DNA from: Paecilomyces variotii | Taxonomy: Eukaryota | Direction: 5' to 3' (one strand) | Assembly (NCBI GenBank): GCA_004022145.1 | Contig: RCNU01000029.1 | Length of the DNA stretch: 61,954 bases | In this document: positions 3,697 through 61,954 of the stretch, in pieces | Numbering within the stretch: the stretch's first letter is position 1 | Layout of the letters: each line of letters starts with the position of its first letter | The notes under the pieces: model-generated | Told to the model about the DNA's origin: nothing | Database searches by the model: none | The model's input: only the letters and a program-made list of their open reading frames with translations | Translations under genes and position numbers: made by a program

Positions 3697-3703
3697 GCTT
3701 AAT

Positions 3704-18868: not shown

Positions 18869-19006
18869 TTTTGGTGCCCCTAGGGGCTCTAGCAGTAGTC
18901 GCCTGCGCCAGCAGCCAGCTTAGTCAGCAGAGTAGTGGCCAGATAGATCAGTTTAGCTTAGCCTCTAGATAAATTTCTTAATTAAGCATCTTTATCAGCT
19001 TTAAGA
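18869..19006 (+). repeat. 5' LTR of Copia A1
   Basis: Direct repeat of 23712-23849, 36700-36836 and 41552-41688. Confidence 0.9.
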
Positions 19007-19018
19007 GGTTATAAGCCC
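19007..19018 (+). promoter_or_regulatory. Primer-binding site GGTTAT(G>A)AGCCC, half-tRNAiMet type
   Basis: ggttataagccc directly follows the LTR and matches the Ty5-type PBS complementary to the initiator tRNA-Met anticodon arm. RIPed versions follow the A2 and B-family 5' LTRs. Confidence 0.75.
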
Positions 19019-19158
19019 AGCTTAGCCTTATTACTATTTTAAATAGATAAGCCAGATATCTTAAAGCTTTAATTTAATTAAAAGCTTTAATTAAACGATA
19101 TTTAAAACAAGAAGTTAAACTAATAGATCTTTACCTCTAATTAGAATAACCCTTTAAG

Positions 19159-23660: not shown

Positions 23661-23711
23661 ATTACCCAATTAGGTAACTGAACCTATCTGCCGGTATAGT
23701 TAAAGGGGGTG

Positions 23712-23849
23712 TTTTAGTGCCCCTAGGGGCTCTAGCAGTGGTCGCCCGCGCCAGCAGCTAGCTTAGTTAGTAAAGTAGTGGCCAGATAGATCAGTTCAGC
23801 TCAGCCCCTAGATAGATTCCTTAATCAAGCATCTTCGTCAGCTCTAAGA
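23712..23849 (+). repeat. 3' LTR of Copia A1
   Basis: Direct repeat of 18869-19006, preceded by the PPT plus tg. Confidence 0.9.
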
Positions 23850-31479: not shown

Positions 31480-32940
31480 TATCCTCAGAGAATTACTAAT
31501 AGAAATCCTATAAATAATTTCTTAAGATTTAGTGCGATATTTAGTTTTCATAGGATTGTAAAGACTTTATAAAGATATTAAATATATTGTTCAGAGTTTT
31601 TAAAGCAATAACTAGGTTATTAATATAAATATATATAAATTCCTTTAATTTCTTTAGGTATTAGTCTATTAATATTAAATATATATAGGTATATTATAAA
31701 ACCCTATAATAATATTAAATACCTCTTATCTTTAGTATATAATAATAATTAGTCTTATTTAATATAGGGGAAAGACCCTTTATTAATAAAAAAGAGATAT
31801 TATATTAAAATACTAATATATATATATATCCTTATATTATACCCAGAATATCTTCCTATAATAGAATTAGATAAATATTTAGAATAGTTTTATAGTTTAG
31901 CGGTTAAATATTAACTATAATATATTCCTTATATATTTAAATACTATATTTCTTAACTATTTTCTAAATAATACAGATAAAATATTTATTAGGGGTATAT
32001 CTATCTACCTATAATATTTAACCCTTAAAGAGTATTAAATATTTAATCTATAACCTTTTTATTCTTAGGATTTAGTAGGTAAACTTTATTATATTAAGGT
32101 AAATATATTAGAGGGTTTCTGCAAGTTCAGATTACTAGGTTTTAGATTTTAGGTTTCTTAATTAGAACTCTTAGCGAATCTAACTAGCAAGCGGTCTATT
32201 CGTGATATTTATTATATAACTAGTAACCGGGAAGTATTAGGTAGTTCTAGGGAGTTCTTTCAGCTTCTGGATTAAGAAGATTATATAAGTCCCGGTTAGG
32301 GTTTTAATAGAGGCTATATTTCGACAAGAGATAGTATTAATCTTTAGAGAATTAATAGGGAAACTACCGGAGGTTATTGTACTGGAGTAGAAATAGGACC
32401 GCATTAATAAGGATTTAAAGGCCTTAAATAAAAGGTCCTCTAAGCAGGAATTAGCTATAAAAAGACTTAATAAGAACTAGTCTAGGCTTCTTACTTACCT
32501 TAGTAAACTACTCCCCTTCCCTGAAGCTAATAAATCTAGTTAAGACTAGTAGTAAATAGTTTATTTAATATTAGTAAATTAAGGTCTTCCTTAAGTAATA
32601 GTATTTTTTCTTTATATAATAATAATAAGGCATTTCCTTTTAGTAGCGGCAGACTTAAATCTCTATTTAATAATAGTATTGCTTCGGAATCGGCTAATAA
32701 AATATTTAAATACTTATTTAATATTAGTGGCTCGATCCTATAGTAAATGCTAATAAATATTCTTATAGAGATAGGTTATTATATTAGTAAAGAATATTAA
32801 AATAGTATAGTAAGTAATAATTGCCTGTATAATCGGCTATAGGTTAATATCTAGAGTATTTATATACCAATAAGTTTAAATTGTGCTAAAGACTATCTCT
32901 ATAAATATATAATCTAATAAAAGTTTTAGGTTAAATTATT

Positions 32941-33459
32941 CGGGCCTATACCTCGGCCCAGCCGGGGGCGAGCTCAGCCCACCCTAGAAGCTTAGCCCAC
33001 CCGAGTATTTTTACCATTTTTTAAGTGGGCCGAGCTTTTAAACTAAAAACTTCAAGAATTTATTAAAAGTCGAAACCTAAAGATATTTCACTCGGAATTG
33101 AATATTTATATAGGTTATAACCTATATCTTATATATAAAAAAAAGAAAAATTAAATATCTAAAAATCGATTTTTAAGAATTAAAAAACCAAGAAAGATTT
33201 GTAATTTTCGAATTTCTATGTGTAATTTACTAACTCTTGCCCTAGCGTACCCAATTAAAATCCTAAAATCCTAATTTTAATATATAATGTAGACTAAAAT
33301 ATAAATTATTTTATAATATTTTTTATATATTTCTACTATGCCTAAATAGGCTAGGAAAAATCAAAGTTTCCTGGGGTGCGCCGAGATCCCAAATACTTAG
33401 GTGGTATGAGCTTTTAGGGTGGGCTGAGCTCGTCCCCGGCTGGGCTGAGCTATATCCCG
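32941..33459 (+). mobile_element. ~520-bp non-autonomous TIR element (MITE-like), termini CGGG...CCCG, copy 1
   Basis: About 52-bp imperfect TIRs and repeated gtgggc(c/t)gagct motifs. AT-rich interior with no evident ORF. Near-identical inverted copy at 55717-56236. No TSD visible. Confidence 0.85.
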
Positions 33460-33631
33460 GGTCTTAACTAATAAACTAAATAATAATAACTAAGTTAGAA
33501 GTAAGGCCTAATTAAATTATAATTCTTTTAGTATTATTCTTACTAACCCGTAATAGATAATAAATAATTAAAGTATATTAAATATAAAGAACTAAATATA
33601 TCTATAGAGCATTAATAAGCATTTTTATATA

Positions 33632-35504: not shown

Positions 35505-36699
35505 TATTTAATCCTTTCTATATACTATATATACTAATCTTTATCTTAGTTCTTAAGGTATATTATATATTTTGTATATTATCTTACTAATTAATATATT
35601 TAATATATACTCTATATAATTATTCTTATTATATGTTTTATTATTTCCTATAACTGTTTCTAGGATTATTATATTACGTATATATTGTTTTAGCTTACTC
35701 TTATATTTCTCATAAAGTTATCTTTTATTAGTCTATAATAAATATAATAGAAGCTAAATTTCTTCTATATTTATTTAAATATATTTCTTTTATAAAAAAT
35801 AGATTAGTTAGTTTTTTATTATCTTTATAAATATTTATAAGAATTTAATTTTAATCTATAATAAAGTCTACTGCTAGTATCTTTAAGTTAAGTATTTTTA
35901 ATTTATAATTAAATTATTCTTATATAACTAGGGTAATTCTAAGATTATATTCTAGTTCTTCTTAATTATATTTTCTTCCTATATTAAAATAATTTAGAAA
36001 TTAATCTTATACTGTTTTAGCTTTTTCTTTAAGTTCTTAACTTTAATAATAATAGGAAAGTAACTATAAATAAGTATTATTTAATCTCCTATTTATAAAG
36101 CTTATTTAACTAATTTTTAGAGAAAGTCTTTATAATTATAATATACTAAAAAATTATAGTTAATAAAATTATTATATGCTTACGAGTTAAAGAATATATT
36201 TATTTTTATAGTATAACCTTTAATTAATATATTTATTAAGATTATAAACTTTAGCTCTATACTATTAATATGTTAAAATATTTTATACTTAATTTCTTTC
36301 TCTTTAAGAGTTTTAGAATTTTTCTCTAGATATTATTTATTATTATTAATATATTTGAATTTCTTATAATTAAAGTATTATTCTTCTTTTTTAAATTATT
36401 CTTTCTCTTATATTTCTAAGAACGTTAACTTCTTTATTTTATATTCTATATTGGTCCTTGTAAAGGTAAACTAAGATAATTCCCCCTTTTATTTATCCCT
36501 TATATAAGGATAAAACTATTCTTTCTTCTTAAAGTCTTTAGACCGGAAAAATAAGGATAAGAATAATTTAATTAAGTTTTTAAGATTTTACTTAATAACT
36601 ATAGCTTCTAAAGCTAGCTATATTAAATTTATTAAAATTACTTAATAATTAAATAGCTAATTCTATATTTCTTCCTATAATATATAAAAAAATATCTAG

Positions 36700-39600
36700 T
36701 TTTAGTGCCCCTAGGGGCTCTAGTAGTAGTCGCCCGCGCTAGCAGTTAGCTTAATTAGTAGAGTAGTAGCTAGATAGATCAGTTCAGCTTAGCTTCTAAA
36801 TAGTTCCTTAATTAAGCATCTTTATTAGCTTTAAGAGATTATAAGCTTAGCTCAGCCCTATTACTATTTTAAATAGATAAGCTAAATATCTTAAAGCTTT
36901 AATTTAATAAAAAGCTTTAATTAAATAATATTTAAGACAAGGAGTTAAATTAACAGATCTTTACCCCTAATTAGAATAACCCTTTAATATATTAATACTA
37001 CTATTAACTAAGTTAACCCCCTAACTAGTAATTATAATTTATTAAGGATTAAAGCTATTAAAGACCCTATAGGATAAAATACCTATAATAGCTAAGCGAC
37101 TGATTAATAATAGCAATTATAATAACTAGCTTTAGCTAATAAAAGAAGTCCTTAAAACTATAGATTATAAGGACCTAATTAATATATTAATTAGAAAACT
37201 TATACTTTATAATAGAGCTAAGACTTATAAGAAATAAAGAAAGCTTAGCTTAATAATAAAGAGCTAGATTAGTAATTAGATTAATTATAAGCTAATTAAA
37301 ACTATTAGAATTATACCTAATAAGCTAATCTGTATAGATAAATATATTAAAGTAATTAAGAAAGTTATTAACTACAGCTTAGCTTAAGGCAGATTATTTA
37401 TATTCTAGTAAGCTATTACTATAACTAGATCTTAATATAAAATAATTAAATAATATATTACTAAATTTAGAGATTATATAATAAAATTAAATAATATAGG
37501 CTTAACTCTTTTACCCTTTAATATAGTAATATTAATATTTAAGCAGCTTAAATTTAAATTATTAGCCTAGATTAACTCCTATTATATTTAATAGTCTTAG
37601 TAAATTAAGCCCCTAATAAATATAATAATAGAGGAATTCTAGCAACTTAGCTTTAAAGCTATTAATTAAGCTAGATCTTATAAGAGTATTTAAATAGTCT
37701 TAGCTATATTTGCGAATAGGGCTTTAATTTAAAAGACCTAATAATCTAATAGACTATTAAAGGGCCTGTTATTAAATAAAGACTCTTAAGATTTTACTTA
37801 TAAAATATATAATAAGAAACTATATTTTAAAGGCAAATATAGATATTATTATATGCTTAAATATAACTCTGCAGATTATTATTACCTTAAAGAAGAAGTT
37901 CTTAATTAATAGCGCCTATTAAGAGATATTTAAACTCTTTTAGATTAGAAGAAAATTAACTCTAGTTTATAGAAATAAGATAAGAAGAAGAAGGATTTTA
38001 ATAGCTTTATAGATATAATAGTCTTAATAATACTTATCTTATTTATTAGCTAGATAGCAGACTTAGGAATATATAGAAATATATATAATAACAAGTCTTA
38101 ATTTATTAAGTATAGAGACTTTATTAATAATAAAAAGTAATAATATAAATATAACTATATAAATAATATCCTAGGTAAAAGTAAAGGCAAAGGTATTATT
38201 AAACTAGACCTAGAGCTTAATAGTAATCGCATAAATAGTATCCTTATCTATACCCTATATATATTAAAGCAGAAATATTACCTATTCTTTATAATTTAAA
38301 ATAAAATATTATATAAAATATAATATAACTTCTAAGATAATAAACTAATAGATATAGATATTAATTAAATTATTAGATATATATATAAGAATAAAGATAT
38401 CTTATAGCTTAAGCTTTATAAGCAGATTACTATACTAGCAATATTACTAAAGCTCTTATATAAGAGAATAAGATATATTAATATTATAAAGCTTAAAGCT
38501 ATTATTAAATTAAACCCTATAGCTATTAAACTTATTAAGAATATTAACTTCTATTATAAAGTATATTATATAGTAAAGATAAAATAATTAATATTTAGAG
38601 ACCCCTAGCTCTATATATTATAACTAATAGAATTCTTCTATATAGATATCTAGCCTATAAAGCTGCTGAGAGTTTAAGAATATATTAATTATCTTATTAT
38701 TATAGATAGTATTATAAAAACTTAATTTATCTATATATTAAAATTAAAAGATAAAGCTTTAAAATATATAATCTCCTTTATTAAAGGGATTAAGAATATC
38801 TTGCTAATAGGATATTATTTCTAATATTAAAGAATTAATAATAGAAGAGAGTTTCTAAACTTTAAATCTTAGGCTAAAGCTAAAGGCCTTAAGGTTAAAC
38901 TAATACCTCTATAAATTTTAAAAAATAATAGCACTTTAAAATACTATGAAAGATATTTTAATTTATTAGCTTATATAATAATAATAGCTTTAGAACTCCT
39001 AGAGAATCTTTAGCTATTTATAATTAAGATTATTATTTATATTATAAATAGAGTATTATAGAAAGATAAGACTAAACCTCTTATTATAAAATAGAGGAGA
39101 TATTTTAATATATTAAATAAAAACCTCTTGCTAAAATATTTATAAGTTTAAGATTATTAAATATATCTCTATATATTTAAAGAAGATAGGAAGCAAGTAT
39201 TTAAAATAATATCTTATGCTTAAATTAATTACCTAATTAGATATAAGAGAGATAATAGTTATATTTATAAAGTCTAAATCCTAGAAATAGGTAAGATTAA
39301 ATACTTTAAAGATATTATATTCTTTAAAGATCTTAATAATCTATTAATTCTTATAATTATAAAAAGTCTTATATTAAAGGGTTTAGCGCTAAATATAAGG
39401 GGAGTAAAAATGCCTATTTTTAAACAATATATTAAGAATTAACTATTAATAGTTAATTTAATCTATTAAATAGTTAAAGATACTATTTAATAATATATTA
39501 GAACCTTATTATTTATACCCTAAATTAAATAATAGATATTATAATAACTATTAAAAATATAATAAAATATAGATATTATTTAATTTATTATAGGTAATTT

Positions 39601-41688
39601 AAATGCCCAGATAAATAAGCTAATTAACTAAGTATTACCTAAAGATATCTTAATATCTCTAGATTTACTATAAGAAGAATTTTATAATATTAGCCCTATA
39701 AAGCATAAAGATATTAATAATATTAATTTAATTAGCCTATAATTTATAAAGGAACTAATAAAAGAAATATAATACTCTATATAAGATAAGAAGCTAGTAT
39801 CCTAGCTAAGAGATAAATAAGCTTATAATACTTAAATAGCTTAAATAAAGAAAGCTATAAAGGCTAAAAAGAATAAATAATATAGTATCTTAGCTCTAGT
39901 ACTATAACTTATATAAGCTTATAAAGTTAAAATCTCCTATATTTATAAATAAGTAGTTAAATCTGCGCAGGCTAATAATTAGCAATAAGCTATAGAGATT
40001 TAAATATAGAAGCTTAAAGCTAAGTAGACTTAGTTACTAGTTCTCTATTTTAATAATAAGGATATTAAAGTCTTCTTAAGTAAATAAATATATAATATTA
40101 AGATTAATACTAATAGCTTTTTAAAAAAATATAGAGCTAAATAAGTAGTCTATAATAACTTTTAGTAAACTATTAGATATAAATAATATTATAGCCTAGT
40201 AATAAGCAAGATAGCTATTAAACTATTTTTAACCCTTATTACTATATGCGAGTTATATTAAATTTAATATAATATTATTATAGCTTATTTAAACGCCCTA
40301 TTAAATAATAAGTAAATATATATATATATAATAGCTAATAGAATTTACTATAGGGAAATATTAAGTCTATTTATTTTATTATACCCTATATAGACTGCGG
40401 GAATTTATTAACTTATAAAATATAATATTTATAAATAAACTTCGCAAGATAAGATTTATACTATTAGAAGAAGATCTTTATATCCTTATATTAAATAAGG
40501 AATAATATATTATTATCTATATTAATAATATACTTACAGCAGCATCTATAAAGAAAGATATTAATATCTTTATTATAACTTTAAGCAGTTACTTTAATAT
40601 AAAGATCTTTAATAAACTCTTTAATTTTTTAGGTCGTAAGCTAGATAAAGATTAAATATAGGGAATAATTATTATAAGCTAAGCTAGCTATATATTAGTT
40701 ATTTTAGCTAACTCTAGCTTCTATAATAATAAACTAATAAAAATTTAAGTCCCTATAATATCTATATATAGACTAAAGACTTTAGAAGAACTAGCTAATA
40801 AAGATATTAAAATTAAATATTAAATCTTTATTAGAAAGTTAAGCTGGTTAGCAATTAAAATATAGCTAAACTTAGCTTAAGCTATAAACTGTTTATAATA
40901 AAAGATAAGTAATCTAGATAATAAAGATATTAAAGTAGTAAAATATTTATTATAATATATCTGCTAAGCTTCTAACTATAGTATTAAACTAGGAGTAGAT
41001 CTTAATAGAGGTATTAAAGTTTATATAAATATTAATTATTAAAATAACCCTAATAGAACTTTAATTAAAGCATTTATAATCCTATATAAAGGCGTATTTA
41101 TTAGCTAATCTAATAAGAAATAATAAATAATAGCTCTATTAATAATAATTACCGAATTCTGCGCATTAAATTCTATAGTAAAAGAAGCTATATTTATAAG
41201 AAAGCTAGCTTATACTCTAGGTCTTAAATAGGATCTAGAGATTCTTATACCTATCTAGACTAATATAGTAAATGCCGCGATCTTAGTTAAAAATAGGGAT
41301 TATAAACCTATTACTAAATAGCTAGATAATTATTATTTCTTTATTTAAATTGCAGCAGCTAATAATATAATTAAACTGCAGAAAATTAATAGTAAAATAA
41401 ATCTAATAAACGGCCTAATAAAACTGCTAAATTAGGTTAAATTTAAAGAGTTTTAAGAGCTTATAAAGTTAAAGAAATTAGACGCTAAAGCAATTAAATA
41501 AATTACCTAATTAGATAATTAGACTATCTGCCGGCGTAGTTAAAGGGGATATTTTAGTGCCCCTAGGGGCTTTAGTAGTAGTCGCCCGCGCTAGTAGCTA
41601 GCTTAGTCAGTAAAGTAGTAGCTAGATAGATTAGTTTAGCTCAGCTCCTAGATAGTTCCTTAATTAAGCATCTTTATCAGCTTTAAGA
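36700..41688 (+). mobile_element. Ty1/Copia family A, copy A2, full length, RIPed
   Basis: 137-bp LTRs at 36700-36836 and 41552-41688. Exact 5-bp TSD tctag at 36695-36699 and 41689-41693. Collinear with A1 throughout. Confidence 0.93.
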
Positions 41689-42094
41689 TCTAGGTTTAAA
41701 ATAAATAATCGAGCTAGAATAAAGTATTTAGGTCTATTTTAGCTTAGTAAAGTTTAAATTTATTAAGGAAGCTCTAAGCTATTTATTTTAATTATTACTT
41801 TAACTTATAAAATTATATAGTTATTATCTATAACTAATATTTTAAATTCTTAATATAATTTAATAACTATTATTAAAAATCCTGTTATAAAATTATAGTT
41901 ATAGTAAGAGGTTTATACTTCTAGGCTATTCTATATTTATCTTTAAGTAATATAGCAGTATAGTTTATTATTTTAGTTTAAAATAAGTAAGTATTATAAA
42001 TAAAATATTAATTTATATAATAGCACTAATAATAATAAGTATTTAAATTTATAGCTTAGTATTAATAAGGTTTAAGAAGCTTAGCTATAGTTAT

Positions 42095-42174: not shown

Positions 42175-43735
42175 GAATTATTTTATTTATTAACTTAATA
42201 AAGGCGGCTAAGTTACTATTTAATATTCCTTTAATTATATTTCTTATAGCTTTAGCTATTATAAAAGCAGCTTACTATAGTAAAGAAGTTATAAAAGTAA
42301 AGGGTTTAAAGTTAATAGTATTTAATTTCTATTAAGCATTAAGTTTTAAGCTAAGTTAAAATTTAAGCTATAGCGCGGGACTTAGGCTATATTTAAATTA
42401 TTCTTTATATTAATCGTTAGCACTACTTCCTGTTATAAATAAGGCTATAGCGAATTACTAAGGCTATAATTTAAGGTTATTAGCAGAATTACCTAGCCGC
42501 GGAAAAAAGATAATAAAATAATTAAATATATATATAATAATTAGATTAGCTAGTTATATAATATAACTATTAAAACTAGGTTATTTAATAACTTAGTAAA
42601 TTAAATAGATAAATAAATAACCCCCTTAGAGAATAAAAGTTAAATAGATTAATAATTTATTTTATTAATTATTAAACTTAACCTTTAAACCTACTACACG
42701 TAAATTACTACTTACTTATATTTTAACCTCTTATCTTATATCTTATTTAGCTAGTTTTAACTAGTTACTTCTTTTAAAGAGCTTTTTAACTTTATCTTTT
42801 TATAGTTATTATAAGGCGTAGGCCTTACTGCCTCTAAAATAATTTTTAAGAACTTTAATTATTAAGCTATATAATTTAATACTAGCTTAATTACGCTTAA
42901 GTATAATTATTATAGTCTTTTTAGCCGAGTAATTAATAGATTTAATTTATATAAAGCTAGCTAAGTCTATAATTATTTCTTAAGTTAAAATATATAAAGC
43001 TATTTTAGTAAATCGATTTATAATAACTAAGATTAAGTTATATTTAATTCTTTATTAAAATAATAGTAATAAGCTAATAATAAAGTTTATTAATATATTT
43101 TACTAAGGTCTCTTTACTATAAGCAGTAAATTTAACTATTTATAGAATTTATATTTAAGAATTTAATTCCTTTTATAGATATTATAGGACTTTATATATT
43201 TTTATATAATTTATCTTATACTTAGCTAATAAAATTTCTACTTAAATAGTTTTTTAGTAATTTTAACTTCTTAATAGCTAGTATATAAATTATTATAATA
43301 AATTTATAGTAATTCTTATTTTAGTAAATATTTATCTAGAATATAAATCTTATCTTATTTTTATAGTAAACTCTTATTATCTATAGTATTATAATATAGC
43401 AGTTAAGACTAGCGTATTAAGGGATATAATTAGCTTAGCAGTTACGTACTATTGTTAAAAGAGTAGTTTAAATATTTCTAATAATATAGCGCGAGAATAA
43501 ACCTCTTAAAAAGAATAATAATAATATTATCTATTATTCTGCTATAATAGTTAAGTCCCTTTAATTTTAAATTATCTCCTACTTCTAGTAATTAGTAATA
43601 GATCTTACTATAGTTAGATTTATTCTTTTTAACTAATTATAAGCCTAGGTTTATAAAACTTAGATTAAAAACTTAGCGGTAAAAAATCTTTATCTTTTAA
43701 ATTAATAAGATTTAAAATAGCAGTAATAAGCTATT

Positions 43736-46700
43736 AGTTAAAAAGAGACGATCTAATTACAGTAAGATTTATCCCTATTAAATCTAGGGGGTAACTTAGG
43801 AGAATAAGTATAAGGGGTAGAACTATAATTAATATTATTTTTTTTATTTTCTTACTATAAACTATCTTAAGATATTTATCTCCTTATTATATAATAAGTT
43901 ATATAATTCCTTATAATACCTATTAGTCCTAACTGCTATTTTATAATACTTTTTCTTAATTTAAACTTACTAGGTTAGTAAGTCTTAATTATTTTAAGAA
44001 CCTTAAGAAGTTTACTTTAAAAAGCGGCTTTATAAAGCTATCTATTATTATATCCCTAGTTCTAATAAATTTTATATTAATCTTATTTCTTTAGTATAGA
44101 TCCCGCATATAATAATATATAATATTAATATATTTTAATCTTTTATAGGTATAAGTATTTCTAATTAATAAGAGTAATACTTAATTATCCTTAAATACTT
44201 TTATTAGAGATCTAATAATAAAGGCTTATTTTTCTTTTATTAAAGGTCTATATTAATTTAAGCTAATATAGTTTTTATAATCTATATCTTTTAAAAATAG
44301 GGCTAATTATTAGAATTATTTTGCAGCTTAATATATAGCTATATATTTAGCTTTTATTATTAAAGTTATAATAAACTTTTATTTTTTATTTAATTAGCTT
44401 ATTAAATAGCTAGCTAGAATAAAAATATTCTTTAAGATTAATATCTAATTAGTCTTATCTATTATATAGTCTAAATCTAAATATTTAATAAGTTACTAGT
44501 CTTAATTTATATTAAACTTAAGACTAAGGTATATAGTTAATTAAAGGTATCTTATTAAGGATTTAAAGGCCTTAAAATATCTTTTAAATAAATTTAATAA
44601 ATATTAACTTAATCTACTAATAATAAATATAATATTAGGCCTTATTAAGATTATTAAATAGATAAGGCTATTAATAATTTATTAATATTCTCTTTAATCT
44701 ATTTTTTTATTTTATAGATTAAATAGCTTTAAATAATTATATTTATTTAATAGAATGCTAACTAAATATACCTTTTCTTTATTTATTTTATATCTTAATA
44801 GGAGTTTTTTAGTATAGTAAGATTAATCTATTATTAGTGTTTTATTCTTCTTATTATAAATAATTTAAATATTAAAAATTTTTTTTATCTTTTTTAAGTT
44901 CTTAATTTTATAAACTGTTCTAAATTATTACTTAAACCAGTTAATATTCTTTATTTATTTTACATTAATTAGAATATTATTAATATATACTAAGATTAAA
45001 ATCTTTTTCTCTAAGTATTATAGTAAGCATAGATTAGTATTAGTTTATATAAAACTTATTTTTTAAAGTATTTTAATATAGGTTTAATTTTAATCCTTTA
45101 TAGCTTACTTTAAGCTATATAAAAATCTAAGGACCTTAAATATTATGCCTAATAAAATATTTATTCTAGATAAAGCTATTATATATATCTTCTCCTTTAA
45201 TATTAATTCTATAAAGGCATTATTAATATTTATAATATAATACTTATAATCTTTTATTATAATAATAGCTAAAAAGACTTATAAGATATTATAATAAAGG
45301 ATAAGAGTAAAAATATATTTAAAATTAATACTATATTTCTAGGTAAATTCTTAAATAATAAGATATATTTTAAGCTTTTAAAAAAGCTATTTAGATTATG
45401 CTCTATAATAAGCATTTATTAGCTAATAATAATATTAGCTCTAGGTAATAGAATAACTACTTTAAAAGAATTATTTACTTAAAGTATATCTATTTTAGCT
45501 TTAAATATACTTTACTATAATTTACTTTAAATAGAATTATTAATTATAATATAATATAAGTTTAAAATTAAAACTTATTTTTTAGCTATATAAGCAGCTA
45601 TTATAATATATAATATTTATTTTATATTCTCCTCCTAGTCTATATTAATACCTAGGCTTAAAAGATTTAATATAAGTATTACCTTATAAAACTTTATTTC
45701 TTATTTATTTTCTATTAGCTTATATTTCTCTCTTTTTTACTTTATTATATAGGGGATTTTTATATAAGATATTACTTATCTGTTTAATTAAGATAGGGAG
45801 TCTATAAATAAATTCTTATAAATATTAGGATTATTATTAGTCTTAGGGAGGGATTTTTTAAAATCTTTCTCCTATTAATTAGTTACTTTAGAGAAGGTTT
45901 TTATAAGATTCCTCTTCTATAATTAGCTAGGCAATTTTATAGATTATAACCTATAAAATCTTAATAAATTAAAATCCTTTTCTTTTAAGAGGCTATATAT
46001 ATTTAATCTAGTTAAAATAGATAATATATTTAATTAAATTATAGATTAATCTCTTAAATTTTTTATTAATATTAAGTTTAATGCTAATTTTTAGGGGATT
46101 TTAAGATTTAATTCTTCTCCTAATTTATCTTTAAAGAATTTAGCTTAATAAGTCTTAATAATCTTTTTTATATCTAGTATCTAGACTCTCTATTATTTAT
46201 TTATTCTCTTAATATATTTTATAAAAATATAGATTTTATCTTAGTTTATTAGCATATTTCTCTTTATTTCTTATAATAAAAAGTCTAGATTTATATATAA
46301 AACTATCTAATATCTCTATATTCTAAGATAATTAATTAATAATTTAACTTTAATAAAGGCTTTTTTTAAAATAATTTAAACCCCTTTAACTATAGGTCTA
46401 TTTAATACTTTATTTTTAATATATATATTAGTTTAGGCTGCCTTTATCTATAATTTAATAAATAGGTTTAAATTTTTAAATATAGCCTTTATTTCTTTTT
46501 TAATAATTTAATATATCTATTTTATAGCCCTATTTTAGGTTAATATATAAGGGATTATTAGTTTATAATAAATGCTAAACTTTTTCCTCTAAATTTTAAA
46601 TATATTTTTAAGTTCTAATATATTATTAGATTTTATACTAAGAATTTTAAGGCCTATTATTATTTTTATCTTTTTTTTATTTATTTAAAATAGGAGTAAT

Positions 46701-48929
46701 ATTAGATTTAGCTCTTATTAAAAATACTTATATTTTTTTTAAGTAATTATTTACAATTATTAAAAAATAGATATATTTATCTCTAGACTTTAGCATTTAG
46801 CTATATATTTTTATATAGATAAGTTTTAGAATATTATCTTTTTATTTACTTATTATATCTTTCTTATTATATCTTTCTTATTTCTAATATTAGCTATAGT
46901 ATAAGTTATATATTAATAATTAATTATTACCTTAATTAATTTTCTTAATATAATTAACTTATATAGATTTCTAACCTTTTTAAATTTAAAATAACTAATT
47001 CTTCTATACTATAATTAGTATTTTTTTTAAGCCTTTAAGCTTAAGCTCTTAAGATCTTTAGAGAAAGCTTTCTTAATATCTTTTTCTTAAGTAATAATTA
47101 TAATATTAAAGGTATCTTTAATTAATAATAGTATTATAAGTATATATAGTAATTTAGATATTTAATCTAAAAAGACCTTTTTAATAATATAAACTCTATA
47201 TTTAATAGTACCTTAAATTATTATATTGTCTAACTTATTTAATATAGATATTATTCTCTTATTAAAATATTTATATAGGTTTAATTACTGGCAAAATATC
47301 TTAATTAATAAGAGGTTTATCTTAAGGTTTAATATAAGCAATATATTCTCTAGGTCTAAAACCTTTTTATCCTAATTTTATAAAATAGCTATCTCTATAT
47401 ATTTTAAATATAGAATCTCTTCGCCTATATAAATATATCTTTATTAAATCTAAATTAATAATTCTCTAAAGTAATAATTTTTATTAGTTATATATAAACT
47501 AGTATTACTATCTATATATTGTTAAAATAAATTCTTACTAGTTATATCTTTAGAAAAATAGGTAATTTTATAAGAAACTTAGTTATTAAAATTAACTAAA
47601 GTTAAAGTCTTTAACTAAGACTAATTTATTCTAGTATTTAAGATTTCTTTTATTTTATATGCTTTTTATTTTCCATCCTTTAATTATTTATTTTTTAAAA
47701 ATTAAATCTCCTTATAGAGTTCTAAGATTATTTTTATTATCTTTTTATTATTAATAAATAAACTATTAAATATTCTCTTTAGAGATTTTTATTTTATTTT
47801 TTATTATCTCTTAAAGCCTTTTAACAATAGATAAAAATAAGTATTTCTTAATATAGTAATCCTTCTTATAAAAATAGTATTTAATAATTATCTGCTTATT
47901 TTATATAAAAAATATATTAGTTAGTTTAGCTTAGAGCTAGGCCTTTATTTCCTTTAAAATAGCTAGAATATCTTCTACCTTTAAAGTTCTTCTATATATT
48001 AATTATTATCTAATAGTAGTATATTCTTTAAGTAATACTAAAAGTAAGTTATTATATCTTAGCTTTAAGTTTAGCTAAAAAAATATTATACTTACTTAAA
48101 TACTATAATTCTCTTTCTTATTTATTATATAATTATCTTTAAGTATTTAAAATTATTTATTTAGAAGTTATTTAAAAATATATATATAATTAAATAAGCT
48201 AGTATCTTTAAGTAAGAAGAGTTTTTTAGTATTTTATTTATAAGGCCTTTTATAATACTTCTATATTAGGGAAATTAATAAATTTATCTTAATTATCTTT
48301 AAATAGGTATTTAGTAATTTAATATTATATAGTTATATTAGTTTTATTATATATAGCTTTATATAGACTTTTATTTAATTTAATAGCTTTCTAGTAATTC
48401 TTATTAATAAGCTATTTCTTTATATAAAAAACTATTTCTTATAGTTTTCTCTTAAAAGGATAAAAATAAGTCTTTTTTTTAAATTATTAATATCTTTTAC
48501 TAATAATATTTTTATAATAAATTAATTTTTTAATTTTTAATAAGTTTTAATCTCTATTAAATTTAATACTTAATTTTAGAATATTAAAGCAGTCTTATTA
48601 TAAATTCTTTTATATAAGAATAACTTATTATTATTACTTTAAATCTTATAGCTTTAAATAAAGAATTTTATATTACTTAATTTCTCCTAAGTTATTATAA
48701 ACCTAGGCTTATAATTAATTAAAAAAAGATAATTTAATTATAGTAAGATTTATCTCTATTAAATCTAGAGAATAACTTAAGAAGATAAGTATAAGGGGTA
48801 GAACTATAATTAATATTATTTTTTTTATTTTCTTACTATAAACTATCTTAAAATATTTATCTTCTTATTATATAATAAGTTACGTAATTCCCTATAATAC
48901 TTACTAGTCCTAACTGCTATTTTATAATA
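43736..48929 (-). mobile_element. Ty1/Copia family B, copy B3, full length (5194 bp), RIPed
   Basis: 213-bp LTRs at 43736-43948 and 48717-48929. Exact TSD ctatt at 43731-43735 and 48930-48934. PBS at 48705-48716 and PPT at 43949-43955. Copia RT and RNase H motifs on the minus strand. Confidence 0.92.
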
Positions 48930-49289
48930 CTATTTTTATATAAGAGAACTTATAGTAAAACTGCTCTAATATTTAAATTATTAAATATTAAACTTAATAG
49001 AGATTAAATCCTATTAAAAGTTAGAGTATTAACTTATTACTATTACTATATTCTTAAAGAATTTAAATAATTTAAAAAGGAGACCTATTCTTACCCTTTT
49101 AAGAGAGAATTATAAGAAGTAATTTATTTATATAAAGAAATAGCTGCTTAGCAAGGACTATTAAAATATTATTAAATTATTTAGAAATTAATATAAGCTA
49201 GTGTTTACTAAGACTAATATAACTATATAATATTAAATTATAAAATATTTATTTAAAGATAATTAAGATTAATTTATAGATACTACTAG

Positions 49290-52200
49290 TATTACGCTCG
49301 AGCAGATTAAATTAGATTTATTAATGCTTTTAATCTAGTAAGGTAGTATAATAAAGAACTTTAAGCTAGAGAAAGAAAAGGAAAAGAATTTAAGAAAGGA
49401 ATCTTAAGTCTTTTATTTATAAGATTCTTTATCTCCTAACTGCTTTTAAATTATATAGGTAATTAGGGGTTTTGCTAATAAATCTCTCGCTCTATTTCCT
49501 TATTAAATTAGCGCTAAGATAGCGCTATAATATTACTCTCTTATTTAGGCTAATTTATCCTTAAATTAATAAGATAATTATTATCTTATTATTTCTTTAG
49601 ATTAATCTCTTTATTAATGCAGTTAATCTAGTAGTTTAAATTAGCTAGCGGCCTAGGTTTATTAAAAAATCTATTATAAAACTTTTAGAGCTTTAATAAT
49701 AAATTCTTAAAATTTTTAATAAGATACTATATTAAATCTTTATTATATCTCTTTTAAGTAGCCTAATATTATAAATATTTATATTTAGTTTAAATAGCTA
49801 AAATCCTATTAATTTCTTATTTTAATTTACCCTAAATTTAAATTAGCAGGGGCTTTTTATAGACTTAATATAAAATAGAATTATTTAGCGCTTATTAGAG
49901 GTAATTTAAAGGAAATATAAGGTAGACTTTTATAATATTAAGGAGCTTTAGCTTTTAAACATTTCTTATCTTTTTAAGGATCTTAAAGAGACCTTTTATT
50001 TAATTACTAAGCTTTTATAAGGGTTAATTAAATATTTAGTTTATAAGTTTAATAAAAACCTTATTATTAATATTAAAGTTAACCTTTTAATAATATTTAT
50101 CTGCCTATTTCTTTTACTATTTCTAGGCTTTCTTAATAAAGGCTTCTATTATCTTCTAGATTTATTAGAGTCTATATCTATTATTAAGCTTTAGCCCAAT
50201 TAGCTTTCTTAGATATTAGGGTTAATTATAGTACTAGTCGCCAGTTAAATAAGATATAGAGCTTATATCTATATTTAACTATAAATAAAAATATCCCTAT
50301 TAATTCTTAGGTTAATACTGCTGCTATAAAATTAATTATTAGAAAATAATCTAATTAATTATTCTAATAATAACTAATATAGAGTTATAGTCTCTAGGCT
50401 ATATATTAGTTTAAAACTTCTATTTATCTATTTATTTAAGAATATATAGCTAAAAAGAGCTTTAATTTTATTTTTAGCAGTAAATAGAATTTATCTTAAA
50501 AGTCTAAAATAAATTATAGTCTTTAATTAAAAATTATTATATTAAGGGCGCTCTTATAATAATATATATACTTAAGAAAGATTTTAGCTATAGTCCTTAC
50601 TATTACTATATTATAATAAGGAATTAAAATAGAGTATTTGCTAAAATAGTTAATTATAATAAATATTATATTATACTTATACTTATTCTTTAGAAAAGAT
50701 TAAAAATCTATTAAGAGATATTATTATAATTATTTAAGGATAAATAGTAATTAAAATAACTTTAATAAAAAGTTTTAGAGATTCTTAGTTTAGCAATAAG
50801 TTAAATAATTATTAATATATTAATTAATAAAACTAATTATTTAGGGCTAGTAATAGTAAGACTTTATTAATTATTATATCTTCTAGTATTTAAAATAGGC
50901 AGTAAAGACTTAATAATAGACTTTATTTAAGAGATATATTTATAAATTCCCTTAATTAAGAATAACTAATTATTTACTATATAATAGAAATCCTTCCTTT
51001 AATTAATATATAAAGCCTTTTTAGCCTATATCTTTATAAAATAGTATTAGTTTAATATTCTTATAATTCTCCCCAAGGATTTTATTTACTAAGGTAAATT
51101 CTCTAGCTAATATTAAAGCTAAGAGAGTCCCCTACTCTATTAACTCCTTTTAAATTTATTTATTTAAGACTTTAGGCTTTAGCAGGTATTAAGTCTAGTA
51201 TTAGTTTATCTATTCTTTTTATTAGGAAATATCTTCTTCTTATTATAATAAGATATTAGCTAAAGTATTTAGCTTCTTAGAGTAATATTAAATTAAAAAA
51301 TAATAATAAGATAAGAACTCTATTTATTAGGCTTATCTTAAATTTAATATTTTAGTAATTATAAAGTATTTAAGAATATAATAATCTGTTAAAATATTAA
51401 ACGGCTTATTTATCTATAAACCTATAAGCTCTGCGCGCTATTCCTTAAGGGCTTATATAATTGCTAAGAGCTCTGCATTATAAATTAAATAATTATACTT
51501 AGCTAGTGCTATTATTTTTAAATAATAAATAACTAAGTATTAAAAATCTTATTTATTTACTTATTAAGCAAGTATAGCAGCTATAATACTATTTAAAGCA
51601 TTTATCTTAATATATATATTCTTATTAAGATTATAATTATATAGAATTAATACTAATTAAAGATATTTCTTTAATATTTTAAAAGCTTTATAATACTTCT
51701 AATTAAAATTAAATAAATAATTCTCCTTAGTTAAGTTTATTATTAGTCTTATAATATAATTATAGTCTTTAATAAACCTCCTATAGAAGTTATAAAAACT
51801 TAAAAATAAATAGACCTTATAGATTATTTTAGGCTGCTCTTAATCTTAAATAATAATAACCTTCTTAAGATTAATTTTAATACCTTTTATACTAATAATA
51901 AAACTAAAATATTTTATCTATTTTATATAAAACTTATATTTCTTAATATTAGCTTATAGACTAGCCTTTTATAGATAAAATAGTATCTTTTTTATTTAAA
52001 GTTAGTGCTTTTACTTATTATTAAAATAAATTAAGATATTATTTAAATAAATATTTATATAGTTATTTAGCAGGTTAAAAAAGAGGTTATTTATATATTA
52101 TTAGAATATAGCCGGTCTATTAATAAGCTTAAAGGGAAATATATAATACTTATAAGTTCTATATTTTATATAAAAGGTTATTAAAGCTTTTAAACTAAAG

Positions 52201-55117: not shown

Positions 55118-55716
55118 ACTAGTATATTAGTATTATAAGAAATATTAAAAAAATAATATAAGAAAACTCTTCTTACTTAAAGACGCTAACTTATTTAAGC
55201 TTATATATATTTTTAAATAATTTTAGAATAAATAATTATAAATACTTAAGGGCAATTATAATAAATAAAAAAGAGAATTACTATATTTAATAAAATAATA
55301 TTTTTTTAGCTAAGCTAAAGATTAAGATATAATAACTGCTTTTAATATTATCTAAAAAGTATATTACTATTAAGGCTATTATTAATGCTTAATAATAATT
55401 AGAAGTAGATAATATCTTAGCTATTTTAGAGAAAAAAAAAGCTTAATTTTAGGTTAAACTAGCTATTGCGTTCTTTTTAAAAAATAAGTAGATATTTATT
55501 AAATGCTATATTTATAAGAAGAAGCATTATATTAAGAACTACTTATATTTATTTACTATATAAAAGGCTATAAAAGATATTAAAAGATAATAAAAGAGTT
55601 TTCTTAAAAAAGCTACTAATAGCTTATCTATATAAAATAAAAAAATAATAAATATAATTTTTAAACTCTATAAAGAGATTTAACTAATAAAAAATAAGAG
55701 ATTATAAAATAAAAAG

Positions 55717-56236
55717 CGGGATGTAGCTCGGCCCAGCTGGGGACGAGCTTAGCCTACCCTAAAAGCTTATACCACTTAAGTATTTAGGATCTCGGCGCAC
55801 CCCAAGAAACTTTGATTTTTCCTAGCCTATTTAGGCATAGTAGAAATATATAAAAAATATTATAAAATAATTTATATTTTAGTCTACATTATATATTAAA
55901 ATTAGGATTTTAGGATTTTAATTGGGTACGCTAGGGCAAGAGTTAGTAAATTACACATAGAAATTCGAAAATTACAAATCTTTCTTGGTTTTTTAATTCT
56001 TAAAAATCGATTTTTAGATATTTAATTTTTCTTTTTTTATATATATAAGATATAGGTTATAACCTATATAAATATTCAATTCCGAGTGAAATATCTTTAG
56101 GTTTCGACTTTTAATAAATTTTTGAAGTTTTTGGTTTAAAAGCTCGGCCTACTTAAAAAATGGTAAAAATACTTGGGTGGGCCGAGCTTCTAGGGTGGGC
56201 TAAGCTCGCCCCCAGCTAGGCCGAGGTATAGGCCCA
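55717..56236 (-). mobile_element. ~520-bp non-autonomous TIR element, copy 2 (inverted relative to copy 1)
   Basis: Reverse complement of 32941-33459 with few differences, mostly transitions. Left flank is truncated Copia B4, right flank is unrelated sequence. Confidence 0.85.
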
Positions 56237-59087
56237 TTAATATTTAATCTAGGCTATATATAAACTAAGTATATGTTAAATATAAACTTAGTATTTAATA
56301 GCCCCTAATAAAGATAAGTTTCTCCCTATATTATAATTATCTTAAAAGTAATTACTTTTAGATAATCTAGTATACTTTTAAGTATAACTCTACTATTTAA
56401 AAAAGATTTTTAATATTTCTTATAATAATATAGTAAGAATTTATAATTTAGTTTTATTTTAAAGCTATCTTTTAATATCTAGATATTTCTTACCCTGTTA
56501 ATATATAGTTTAAAAGATTTCTTAATATAAATTTAAATCCTATAAATATTTTAGTTAATAAATAAGAAAATAAAATCTTTTAAACTTCTTATAAAAATTA
56601 TATTTAATATATATTTAGTAGAAGATAAGTATATATTTAAGATATTCTTGCTAGTTAAAGGAAGAATAAATAGAATATAAATAGTTATTAAAGCTTAAAT
56701 ATATTTAATATATATTCTATATTTATTAAGATAATATTAACTTAATATTTATTTCTTGCATATATTTATAGTAATAGTCTATATTCTTTCTTTATTTAAA
56801 ATATATACTTATTAAATATATTAATATATAGCTTATAATAATATTTAAAATAGTAATTTAAATATTTAAAAATATATATAATAAGTTTATAAAGAGATAA
56901 AAGCATAATAATAGGTATTAATCCTTAAAATAAGGTTAGCATATGCTAAACATATAATAAAAATAAATTAAACATATATTTAGTTTTAGAATTCTAGCTT
57001 AAGATTAAAAAGATATTTAAATTTTTAAATACTATCTTATAAGCTAAATTTATTTTAAGGTATTTAATTTTTATAAATGCTTTTACTTAAGTATTTATAT
57101 AATAAATAATAATATATTCTTTAATTTTACTAATATTAACTATATAAATTTATTATTTATTATTTTTTCTGTATTAGTTAAACTTATACTCTTATATAAT
57201 CCTTATATAATATTAATATATGTAAAACTTATAATAAAAATAGATTCTAATTAGTAATATTTAAACTAAATAAGTATTATAGAAGTTTTTATTTTTAAAT
57301 TAAATAAATAACTTTATTCTTAATATTTAAAAAAGCTCTAATTAAATTTAGAGCTTAACCTTAATACTTTTACTTAAATATATATACTTCTAAAAATATT
57401 AAGAATTTATCTATAAATATCTAGTTAATATATATAAGGTATAGGCTTAAGGTATATATAATATATGTACAGTTATAGTAAGAATATCCCTTTAATTAAT
57501 TAAATCTATAAGTTCTTAAGTAAAATCTTAACTTAACTTAGTTAGTAATAAAAGAAAATATATATAATCTTCTTAATAAACAAGAAGAATAAAAAGAAAA
57601 TAATTCTAATTATAAGAAATAAAAATATTAATTAAAGCATTATATTTTTTATATAAAACTTTAAATATATCTTAAAGGTAATTAAATCCTAGACCTATAA
57701 TTAATATATGCTTAATATATATAGAGTAAATACTTACTATAAGTTATATGCTTTAAAATAATATAATTAATATAAGTAGATTAAATAAAAGTATTAATAT
57801 TATATATTTTATAAGCTATTAAGGTATATAAATAAAGCATATAAATTTAAGCTATATATATAGAGATAGCTTATATAATATACTATAATTTAAAATTATT
57901 TACTAATAAGCAACTAATAAAAGTAACTAATAGCTAAGAATATATTTAATATATACTAAGATTAAATAAAGAGTTAAACTTATTTTATACTATTTAAAGA
58001 TTACTAGAATTTAATTTAAGTATACTTATATTTTACTTTTTAAATAGAAATAATACCTTATTAATTATTAATTTTAAAAATAAAAAAATTTATTATATTA
58101 ATTTTTAGTTTTTTTTTTTTTAAGAAATTTACTAGTAGAAGTAATATTAAATATATAGTCTGCTTTTTTATAAAGCGTTTTAAAAATACTTAGTTTAATA
58201 TAATTATATTTATAATATTATTTAAGTATATACTCTAGCATATATTTATAATATTTAATATTATTGCATTTATATACTTAATAATATATTTTACTTTAAA
58301 TTTTATCTTTTTTATTTTTTTAAAAAAATAAAAGAGATAAAATCTTATAATTACCTTAAGCATAGAGCTTAAACTAGATTTAAGCTATATTTAGCATATA
58401 CTTATAATACCTTAAATATCTGCTTAAAATAAGGTATAAATATATCTTTAATAAAAGTTATTAAAATATTTAATAAATATTTATATTAAAATAATTATAA
58501 AGTAAAGGATTCTTTTAATAGATAAAATATAAGATATTATTAAAATAAGTTATTAAATATTTAAGAATAGATAATTTATCTTAAATATTATTAACTATAA
58601 TTTTAAAGATATTATTATAGCTAATAATAATATTTATAAGAAAAATAGCCTTTTAAATATATTTAGCATATATTTTGCTAAAATTTATATAAAAAGAATA
58701 TATTTAATTAAGTTTTATATAAAGAGAGAATTTAAGATATATTTTAAATTTTTTATCTTTACTTTATATATAAGAATTAATATTATTTTAATTGCTTATT
58801 ATATTCTTAAACTAGTTTAAGTATACTTTATAAAAATTATAGTTTTATATAAGTTTACTTTATAAGGAGTTAATATTTAGTTTAAATATAACTAATATTA
58901 AGTATATATTTAATATTTGCTTAGCCTTAATAAAAGTTATATTAAATATATTTAAATAGGAATATTATATAGCTATTAATTAAAAATACTATTAACTTAG
59001 CTATTAATTATAGTTATTTAATTCTTAGCTATTTTTAAGTATTTAAAGATAAAATAATAATACTTTTTAGCTTTATATTAGCTATTA

Positions 59088-60375
59088 TATTATAAAATAG
59101 CAGTTAGAACTAGTAGATATTATAGAGAATTACGTAACTTTATTATATAATAAGGAGATAAATATCTTAAAATAATTTATAGTAAGAAAATAATAATAAT
59201 AATAATAATTATAGTTCTACTCTTTATACTTATTCTCTTAAGTTACTCTCTTAAATTTAAAAGGAATAGATCTTACTATAATTAAATTATTTCTTTTTAA
59301 TTAATTATAAGCCCGGGTTTATAATAACTTAAGAGAAATTAAGTAGTATAAAACTCTTTATTTAAAGCTATAAGGTTTAAAATAATAAGCTATTCTTATA
59401 TAAGAGAATCTATAATAAGATTACTCTAATATTCTAAAATTAAATATTAAACTTAATAAGGATTAAAACCTATTAAAGGTTAAAAAATTAATTTATTATA
59501 AAAATATTATTAGTAAAAGATATTAATAATTAAAAGAAAAGACTTATTTTTATTCTTTTAAGAGAGAATTATAAGAAGTAGTTTTTTTATATAAGGAAAT
59601 AGCTTATTAATAAAGACTACTAGAAAGTTATTAAATTAAATAAAAGTCTATATAAAGCTATATATAATAAAACTAATATAACTATATAATATTAAATTAC
59701 TAAATATCTATTTAAAGATAATTAAAATAAATTTATTAACTTCTTTAATATAGAAGTATTATAAAAGGCCCTATAAATAAAATATTAAAAAGCCTTTACC
59801 TAAAGATATTAGCTTATTTAATTATATATATACTTTTAAATAATTCTTAAATAAATAATCTTAGATATTTAAAGGCAATTATAATAAATAAGAAAGAAAA
59901 TTATAGTATTTAATAATATAATATCTTCTTTAGCTAAATTTAAAGCTAAGATATAATAATTATTTTTAGTATTACTTAAAGAGTATACTATTACTAAGAT
60001 AATAATTAATATATAAAAAAATCTAGAAATAGAAAATATTCTAGCTATTTTAAAAGAGATAAAGGCCTAGCTCTAGGCTAAACTAATTAATATATTCTTT
60101 ATATAAAATAAGTAAATAACTATTAAATACTATCTTTATAAAAAGGATTATTATATTAAGAAATATTTATTTTTATCTATTACTTAAAAGGCTTTAAAAG
60201 ATAATAAAAGATAATAATAAGAATCTCTAAAAAGAATATTTAATAGTTTATTTATTAATAATAAAAAGATAATAAAAATAATCTTAAAACTTTATAAGAA
60301 GATTTAATCTTTAAAGAATAAATAATTAAAAGATAAAAAATAGAGAGTATATAAAGTAAAAGAAATTTTAAATAC
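59088..60375 (+). mobile_element. Copia family B, copy B5: 5' LTR (59088-59302), PBS and gag; 3'-truncated
   Basis: Reverse complement of B3 ~47630-48929. Homology stops at aaatac (60375). Confidence 0.88.
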
Positions 60376-60988
60376 GAGTCCAGGAGTGCCCTGTGTTGAA
60401 ATGCCAGACGAGGAATATAGGTTTTCTATATATCCGCAAGCTTTGGTTCGGGAGATGTTAGTAGCATTTGGCTGGTTACGATAGAGTAGTAGTGGAGGAG
60501 TCGGAGCTTAAGAAGGTATTTACCGCCTGGGTCTGGGTCTGATATATTAAAACCACTGTTAGAATTACCGCAGTCATAGTTCTTAGTTTTGCTAGCCTTT
60601 AAAGAATTATTTCTATTGTAACCAGCATGTGATAGCGGAGGGATTATAATTAGCTTAAAAACATCTTTGTAGACACAGGCTATATTATAGCGGTTATAAC
60701 TGCCGCAGACTAGATAGATCTTATTGTATTACTTTTTATCAGAAATTAAATATGCCTGACCTTTATAAGTATCTGGAGATTATTACAGAGAGTAAGAGAG
60801 GTTAAGAAAAAGGACTGGTAGAAGTGGGAAAGAGGGAAGTACCCGGTACTCTCCGCGTTGGTAGGATTCTAAGCATTAATAACCCCGGGGGGTTTAAACA
60901 AGAGCAACTGAGAAGATATGATCAATCACAAAATGTGAAAAGAGATAACTAACTTTGACTCGACGGGCACGATACTGCTGGCATCCCG
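60376..60988 (-). pseudogene. Truncated Zn(II)2Cys6 fungal transcription factor gene fragment (Upc2/Ecm22-like architecture): exon 60954-60988, intron 60729-60953, exon 60376-60728
   Basis: Minus strand reads GCQQ(C>Y)RARRVK, then a GTTAGT donor, a CTGAT branch site, then (C>Y)(D>N)(E>K)I(H>Y)(P>L)VCGS(C>Y)NR(H>Y)NIACVY, giving C-x2-C-x6-C-x6-C-x2-C-x6-C. Downstream L(E>K)LRLLH(H>Y)Y...DI(W>stop at 60426-60428)KTYIPRLAFQHRALLD. The tract is GC-balanced and only lightly RIPed. Confidence 0.88.
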
Positions 60989-61954
60989 ATAAAATAGCAG
61001 TTAAGACTAGTAAGTATTATAGGGAATTATATAACTGCATTATATAATAAGGAAATAGATATTTTAAGATAGTTTATAGTAAGAAAATAAAAAAAAATAA
61101 TATTAATTATAGTTCTACCTCTTATACTTATTTTTTTAAATTATTTTTTTAAATCTAGTAGTAATAAATCTTACTATAATTAGATTTATTCTTTTTAACT
61201 AATTATAAGCCTAAGTTTATAATAACTTAGGAGAAATTAAGTAATATAAAACTCTTTATTTAAAGTTATAAAGTTTAAAATAGTAATAATAAATTATTTT
61301 TATATAAGAGAATTTATAATAAGATTACTCTAGTATTTTAAAATTAAGTATTAAATTTAATAGAGATTAAATCTTATTAAAGGTTAAAGAATTAACTTAT
61401 TATAAAAATATTATTAGTAAAAAATATTAATAACTAAAAAAAGAGACTTATTTTTACTCTTTTAAGAGAGAATTATAAGAAATAGTTTTTCTATATAAGA
61501 AAATAGCTTATTAGTAAAGACTACTAGAAAGCTATTAAATTAAATAAAAGTCTATATAAAGCTATATATAATAAAATTAATATAATTATATAATATTAAA
61601 TTACTAAATACCTATTTAAAAATAATTAAAATAAATTTATTAACTTTTTTAATATAGAAGTATTATAAAAGACCCTATAAATAAAATATTAAAAAACCCT
61701 TCTTATTTAAAGATACTAGCTTATTTAATTATATATATACTTTTAAATAGCTTCTAAATAAATAATCTTAAATATTTAAAGGTAATTATAATAAATAAAA
61801 AAAAGAATTATAGTATTTAATAATATAATATTTTCTTTAGCTAAACCTAAAGCTAAGATATAATAACTATTCTTAGTATTATTTAAAAAATAGATTATTA
61901 TTAAGATAGTAATTAATATATAAAAGAATTTAAAGATAAAAAATATTTTAATTA
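60989..61954 (+). mobile_element. Copia family B, copy B6: 5' LTR (60989-61200, first ~4 nt missing), PBS and gag; runs off the window
   Basis: Direct repeat of B5 59092-60050. Confidence 0.88.

Follow-up and report, generated by a model that had tools for sequence, protein, structure and literature searches.

A fragment of a Zn2Cys6 transcription factor gene lying between two Copia-like 5' parts in an AT-rich contig of Paecilomyces variotii

We examined a stretch of 61,954 bases of Paecilomyces variotii DNA (assembly GCA_004022145.1, contig RCNU01000029.1; hereafter the window), at whose right-hand end (59088-61954) a piece of 613 bp with gene-like content lies between the 5' parts of two retrotransposon copies with long terminal repeats (LTRs), likely of the Ty1/Copia type and here called B5 and B6. 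How did part of a regulatory gene come to lie between two element copies of the same orientation? A description made from the letters alone (hereafter the sequence-only reading) had offered two answers: host DNA captured in a non-autonomous LTR-gag-cargo-LTR unit, or the last remnant of a native gene isolated by flanking deletions. Our own answer, to which we give a probability of about 0.5, is that the 613 bp (the island, 60376-60988, minus strand) would be the inert remnant of a Zn2Cys6 transcription factor (TF) gene that once stood at this place, either as a native gene or as a whole copy of other origin.

The island comprises codons 31-160 and a 225-bp intron of a gene for 406 amino acids, in antisense orientation to both Copia 5' parts. 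A phmmer search with a 100-aa open reading frame (ORF) of the island against 1.84 billion representatives returned two proteins, one of which (P0002) is a 337-aa Fungal_trans_2 protein. The other and top match, P0001, a repeat protein from bacteria that carries CHU_C and SprB domains, was discarded as a compositional false match. The search seeded with P0002 recovered 84 proteins, and the closest named one was P0003 (406 aa), recorded as 'transcriptional regulator family: Fungal Specific TF [Paecilomyces variotii]', with a Zn_clus domain (PF00172) at residues 32-64 (E=4.1e-10) and a Fungal_trans_2 domain (PF11951) at residues 118-206. The 90% cluster of P0003 holds 15 sequences, and there are relatives with 74% (P0002) and 70% (P0004) identity to the P0002 query. 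At least one P. variotii genome has the gene in intact form, and related species keep it as well. By its similarity to P0003, we assign the island to the same gene as this 406-aa Fungal Specific TF.

The larger exon piece (60376-60728, minus strand) covers codons 43-160 in a frame of 117 codons, namely the second half of the zinc cluster, the linker and the beginning of Fungal_trans_2; over P0003 residues 44-159, 87 of 116 residues are identical (E=2e-55). The smaller piece (60954-60988, minus strand) runs from the last two nucleotides of codon 31 to codon 42, (S)GCQQYRARRVK, and holds the first half of the cluster, with 10 of 12 residues equal to P0003 residues 31-42; the first base of codon 31, at 60989, is already LTR. 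Between the two pieces, and between Lys42 and Cys43 in phase 0, lies an intron-like interval of 225 bp (60729-60953, minus strand; gttagt...taa) that has no match elsewhere in the window. We read this interval as a retained intron, and less likely as an insertion, because P0003 and the more distantly related P0008 and P0015 are uninterrupted across Lys42/Cys43. The intron-containing, antisense Zn2Cys6 fragment of the sequence-only reading is therefore well founded. An apparent tblastn extension of the match to residue 169 (60348) was an ungapped run-on into Copia sequence and not homology. Within the window the island matched only itself at E<=1e-5, and tblastn with P0003, P0002 and P0008 found no further pieces of the gene, the other matches having E>=6.

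The differences between the island and P0003 are almost entirely those expected from repeat-induced point mutation (RIP). They affect 32 of 129 aligned codons, and for 31 of these 32 C>T or G>A changes suffice as an explanation, compared with a mean of 10.7% (maximum 19.7%) in shuffled pairings; the sole unexplained codon is the junction codon, whose first base comes from the LTR. The minimal number of base changes is 32, of which 16 are C>T (12 before A) and 16 are G>A (13 after T), so that 25 of the 32 inferred changes lie in the CpA/TpG context typical of RIP. Together with the raised TpA/ApT index (1.27), the near-exclusive C>T/G>A changes and their CpA/TpG bias form a RIP footprint. If these changes are reversed, the island would have encoded the same protein as P. 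variotii P0003 at 128 of 128 comparable codons.

As the island reads today, Cys33, Cys50 and Cys60 are intact, Cys36, Cys43 and Cys53 have become Tyr, and Trp143 has become a TAG stop codon (60426-60428). The sequence-only reading had seen a complete six-cysteine cluster split by the intron: the split and the CX2CX6CX6CX2CX6C spacing hold, but the cluster is complete only once the RIP-type changes are reversed, with three of the six Cys codons remaining now. Since the island spans P0003 residues 31-160, it belongs to the Zn_clus family by homology, and it derives from a Zn2Cys6 gene without being a working member of the family. The start of the downstream domain had also been recognised, and residues up to 160 do overlap the Fungal_trans_2 match of P0003, though only over its first 43 residues (118-206 in P0003; profile length 384) and with no Pfam match in the island itself. 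The exon translated with X at stops gave 0 Pfam families, and no Zn_clus or Fungal_trans_2 match appeared in the raw translation; the HMMER detection that had been suggested as a check, there for the de-RIPed translation, yielded 0 domain families on the island as it stands. Two matches on its raw ORFs, both to lipoprotein signals in a 40-aa ORF, were set aside as chance.

The flanks are far more heavily altered. The GC content of the island is 40.5%, against 15.1% in B5 and 13.7% in B6, and its RIP indices are moderate (TpA/ApT as given above; substrate index, (CpA+TpG)/(ApC+GpT), 0.89), while the substrate index of the flanks is exhausted (0.04 and 0.06; 0.04 in the B5 LTR). The description of the island as GC-balanced is accurate relative to these flanks, but the island itself bears RIP signatures. 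Over the entire window the GC content is 19.4%, with all 1-kb bins within 12-30%, and the substrate index is 0.25. AT-rich regions of about 20% GC, close to the 19.4% of the window, have been described in P. variotii, and experiments have shown that RIP is active in this species and biased toward CpA (PMC6300479). Taken on their own, this composition and the RIP-only relation of the island to one protein named from P. variotii would make an AT-rich region of P. variotii or a very close relative the probable source of the window. Amino-acid-changing RIP sites in the exon at 60376-60728 affect 14 of the 39 codons nearest the intron, 11 of the 40 in the middle and 5 of the 38 beside B5.

The boundaries of B5 and B6 were set against a full-length reference element of the same family, element A (43733-48929, minus strand; 5197 bp). 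It has two LTRs of 216 bp each (48929-48714 and 43948-43733, minus strand) that are 90.7% identical, a purine tract (polypurine tract, PPT), AAGAAAAAG, immediately 5' of its 3' LTR and, given the LTR end ...TTAACT, the 5-bp repeat AATAG on both sides as a target-site duplication. Element A thus has the LTR pair, the PPT and the target-site duplication of a full-length LTR element.

B5 begins with a 5' LTR (59088-59305, plus strand) that aligns to both LTRs of element A, starts with TATTAT, probably TGTTAT before RIP, and is flanked on its 5' side by TATTA (59083-59087). Its internal part (59306-60375, plus strand) consists of a stretch resembling a primer-binding site (PBS) and a gag-side region, and is truncated at element position ~1299; B5 as a whole corresponds to positions 1-1299 of element A at 89.4% identity, and the homology between element A and a further copy, C, goes on to 2912. 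B6 begins with an LTR (60989-61203, plus strand) that, in a four-copy LTR alignment, has lost its first 4 nt, with CCCG in place of the TATT found in the other three LTR copies. The sequence 5' of this LTR, ...CTGCTGGCATCCCG, is not a purine tract. The LTR continues for at least 750 bp into a PBS-like stretch and a gag-side region (61204-61954, plus strand) that reaches the window end; B6 corresponds to positions 5-966 of element A at 89.3% identity, where the window ends. In a self-BLAST, 59092-60043 and 60989-61950 form a direct repeat of 85-92% identity by block and 88.2% over 962 columns. A PBS-like stretch stands right after each 5' LTR (59303-59317 in B5, with the sequence AATTATAAGCCCGGG; 61201-61215 in B6; 48716-48702, minus strand, in element A). 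The order LTR-PBS-gag, 613-bp island, LTR-PBS-gag was borne out by these alignments to element A, with the reservation that the label 'gag' for the internal parts of B5 and B6 would apply by position only.

Both ends of the island fall exactly at Copia boundaries, as had been noted, and neither junction is an integrase product. On the left, Copia homology stops with ...AAATAC at 60375, where element A and copy C continue with TAG... and TAA..., and the gene starts at 60376; the cytosine at 60375 can be assigned to either partner, which gives a microhomology of 1 nt. On the right, the gene stops at 60988 within the codon of Ala31 and is followed by LTR position 5. Both junctions look like end-joining. 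The missing first 4 nt and the missing PPT of the second LTR, also part of the earlier description, are evident from the four-way LTR alignment and the junction sequence.

These features, and the relationship between B5 and B6, bear on the possibility that the locus is, or was, a mobilised chimeric retroelement of the form LTR-PBS-gag-cargo-LTR that captured host DNA. The observed order of LTR, PBS-like stretch, gag-side region, foreign DNA and LTR is that of such a unit, an antisense cargo would shield its intron from splicing, and gene capture by transposable elements is documented in fungi for DNA transposons (PMC3538342). In a unit of this kind, however, the second LTR would be a 3' LTR preceded by a PPT, and here it lacks both the PPT and its first 4 nt. 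It is instead a 5' LTR, because the PBS-like stretch and the gag-side region, at least 750 bp together, follow it. Two LTRs that arise from a single integration start out identical. The LTR pair of element A shows 20 transitions with neither transversions nor gaps (212 columns), which makes it a clean internal yardstick for divergence by RIP only in this genome. Between the LTRs of B5 and B6 there are 27 transitions, 8 transversions and 1 gap (Fisher p=0.04 against the pair of element A), and neither the island nor its junctions have a second copy in the 62-kb window. A mobile cargo unit is thus very improbable, and this part of the sequence-only reading is disfavoured.

The same comparisons speak to a tandem duplication of part of one Copia element (positions 5-1299), at whose junction the gene fragment would have been inserted and in which B5 and B6 would be sisters. 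The shared orientation and the breakpoints 1299|5 fit a head-to-tail junction, and at alignment columns 460 and 513 B5 and B6 agree with each other and differ from the other copies. Yet B5 and B6 (12 transversions, 10 gap columns) are no closer to each other than each is to element A (10/18 and 13/10), the three copies being about equidistant with 10-13 transversions over ~960 bp; B5 has private deletions of 6 nt and 3 nt; and their LTRs carry 8 transversions, against 0 in the true sister LTRs of element A. Most sites at which B5 and B6 agree against element A are also common to copies C and D and are therefore changes private to element A, and the test for shared non-RIP variants gave no sister relationship between B5 and B6. 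In view of the LTR transversions, the equidistance and the private deletions of B5, we consider that B5 and B6 represent separate lineages, neither the LTR pair of one unit nor the sisters of a fresh duplication, and a tandem duplication is accordingly improbable. We give as little credit as to the cargo unit to an artefactual tandem from a mis-join in repeats near the contig end: the window does stop inside B6 and repeats of the family are numerous in it, but both island junctions are boundaries between unique and repeat sequence rather than joins within a shared repeat, and B5 and B6 differ at ~12% of positions, so that their reads are distinguishable.

In the reading we favour, an in-situ relic of the TF gene, two separate Ty1/Copia insertions would have occurred near or in the gene. 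One end-joined deletion would then have spanned the 3' part of B5 and codons 161-406, and another codons 1-30 and the initial 4 nt of the B6 LTR, and what would be left over is the 613 bp of codons 31-160 and the intron, as a single-copy spacer between direct repeats. RIP would have saturated the Copia copies and then spread more weakly into the spacer, where it would have turned three of the six zinc-binding Cys into Tyr and one Trp into a stop. Spreading from the flanking repeats at a lower level seems the best reading of the damage, and since the repeat-linker-repeat geometry is the same as in Neurospora, no second gene copy would be needed to explain it. The fragment lacks a start codon, its own promoter and two thirds of the coding sequence, and it is most likely functionally inert and not mobile. 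The suggestion that an LTR promoter would transcribe it antisense and feed small RNAs is unlikely because the B5 LTR is RIP-saturated (15% GC), and RIP-saturated AT-rich DNA is heterochromatic in Neurospora.

The data show the anatomy, the identity of the gene, the RIP-type damage and junctions not made by an integrase; we infer the order in which things happened and the former presence of the gene at this site, as opposed to its arrival as a copy. Several observations weigh against this reading. Nothing places the gene here natively: there is no other piece of it in the 59 kb to the left (tblastn as above), and to the right of the island the window covers ~1 kb, within B6. Of the two origins in the sequence-only reading, the last remnant of a gene is the one that agrees with the evidence. 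For a gene found whole in at least one P. variotii genome, loss in this strain is not the default expectation, and an intact gene also in the source genome would make a copied-in origin more likely. The RIP sites thin toward B5, so the damage is not a simple gradient of leakage from the edge inwards. The relic also needs two deletions, against the one rejoining event that would suffice if the island were filler.

Filler is the other explanation with some weight. Here a break or deletion from B5 position 1300 to B6 LTR position 4 would have been patched, by end-joining or template switching, with 613 bp from an intact TF gene elsewhere; the parent would persist, and the patch would later have been mutated by RIP from the flanks. 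A single event would then account for both junctions, which are blunt or have 1-nt microhomology and were not made by an integrase, and the fragment is a short interior piece that includes neither end of the gene. The full agreement of its pre-RIP protein with the P. variotii protein, and the survival of that gene in a P. variotii genome and in related species, also suit a copied patch. Capture of several hundred bases of unique DNA at a repair junction is, however, much rarer than plain deletion, and a 613-bp duplicate would put the parent at risk too in a RIP-competent genome. We consider filler capture possible but rather unlikely, and it is because plain deletions are far commoner than such captures that we place the in-situ relic at about 0.5.

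The assignment of element A, B5 and B6 to Ty1/Copia, which we regard as likely, draws on domain matches below the cut-off. Pfam scans on the Copia side covered small targeted sets of frames. Element A itself, in three frames with X at stops, gave 0 families because it is too degraded. Two co-linear matches to RVT_2 (PF07727), the Ty1/Copia reverse transcriptase, at profile positions 1-97 (E=8.5e-6, 26.0 bits) and 97-204 (E=3.6e-6, 27.2 bits), fall below the cut-off of 31.6 bits; they lie in two better-preserved fragments (23851-24307 and 18538-18867, minus strand) that are homologous to positions 3293-3748 and 3745-4078 of element A and are the only places with detectable RVT_2. A weak Pol_BBD match, also below its cut-off (E=0.0067), was found in copy C at ~1400-1600, just 3' of the break point of B5, and no gag or integrase (rve) family was detected in the frames scanned of element A and copies C and D. 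With G>A changes reversed, the PBS-like stretch would be similar to a sequence complementary to initiator tRNA-Met in its anticodon arm, the half-tRNA primer site known for copia and Ty5. ARAGORN found no tRNA genes in the window.

Some further arrangements were seen among the repeats. An inverted partial Copia copy (48930-49292, plus strand; positions 308-667 of element A, 78%) directly abuts the 5' LTR of element A, in a head-to-head arrangement with no spacer. The two RVT_2 fragments are separated by ~5 kb whose ends (18868-19006 and 23159-23849) match another family, also present at 41000-41688 and 36700-36836; an element of a second type seems to be nested here. Short patches of 33-38% GC stand out against a background of 12-25% at 18381-19060, 23601-23890, 32151-33550, 36661-36860, 41451-41710 and 55661-56330. 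Some of them coincide with the second repeat family, and none matches the island in GC content or length. No pieces of the TF gene were found in these patches by tblastn with the TF proteins, a check for relics that was limited to those proteins.

As an in-situ relic, the island would be part of a pseudogene within repeats degraded by RIP, debris of a kind familiar from fungi with AT-rich compartments. It would also be a natural repeat-linker-repeat case outside Neurospora, in which the spacer has a known pre-mutation protein and partial RIP, and it could serve to measure the spreading of RIP in Eurotiales. Should an intact parent lie in the same genome, the locus would be an example of a host gene fragment captured during repair, in a fungus of this order with active RIP. 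An unlinked partial duplicate made by such a capture could expose the parental regulator to RIP, or to antisense RNA if it were transcribed from the LTR side.

Gene capture and transduplication are known from plant Pack-MULEs and from the maize LTR element Bs1. In fungi, a hAT element of Pyrenophora tritici-repentis with a histone H3-like cargo is a case of gene capture (PMC3538342). The locus resembles such cases in that a host gene fragment, here of a DNA-binding TF, adjoins transposable element sequence, and it differs from them in having no functional termini, no PPT, a truncated LTR, unpaired LTRs and no extra copies in the window. Filler DNA and templated insertions at end-joining junctions are known from yeast and plants, and the island is like them a short internal piece of a unique gene with blunt or 1-nt-microhomology junctions. 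Here any donor copy would be a putative one, and two ordinary deletions explain the same junctions.

Closer parallels are found in RIP-altered fungal genomes. For single-copy genes inside degenerated transposable elements of Leptosphaeria maculans, overrun of RIP has been invoked (PMC3105345). As in the AT-blocks of L. maculans and the AT-rich regions of P. variotii, single-copy gene sequence lies within RIPed retrotransposons and carries CpA-biased C>T/G>A changes that are sparser than in the repeats (PMC3105345; PMC6300479). The island differs from the genes of the L. maculans AT-blocks in being a 613-bp internal fragment with no ends and with a stop codon, not a living gene kept by selection. 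In Neurospora, RIP mutates a single-copy linker of ~600 bp between two direct repeats of 802 bp, and the figures quoted from that work for 24 spores are 524 mutations in the linker against ~3150 per repeat copy (bioRxiv 10.1101/115501). The present case is a natural locus in a Eurotiales-like genome, unlike the Neurospora construct, and its repeats are now only 88% alike. As in that construct, two direct repeats, here of at least 960 bp, surround a linker of ~600 bp, and the linker is less mutated than the repeats.

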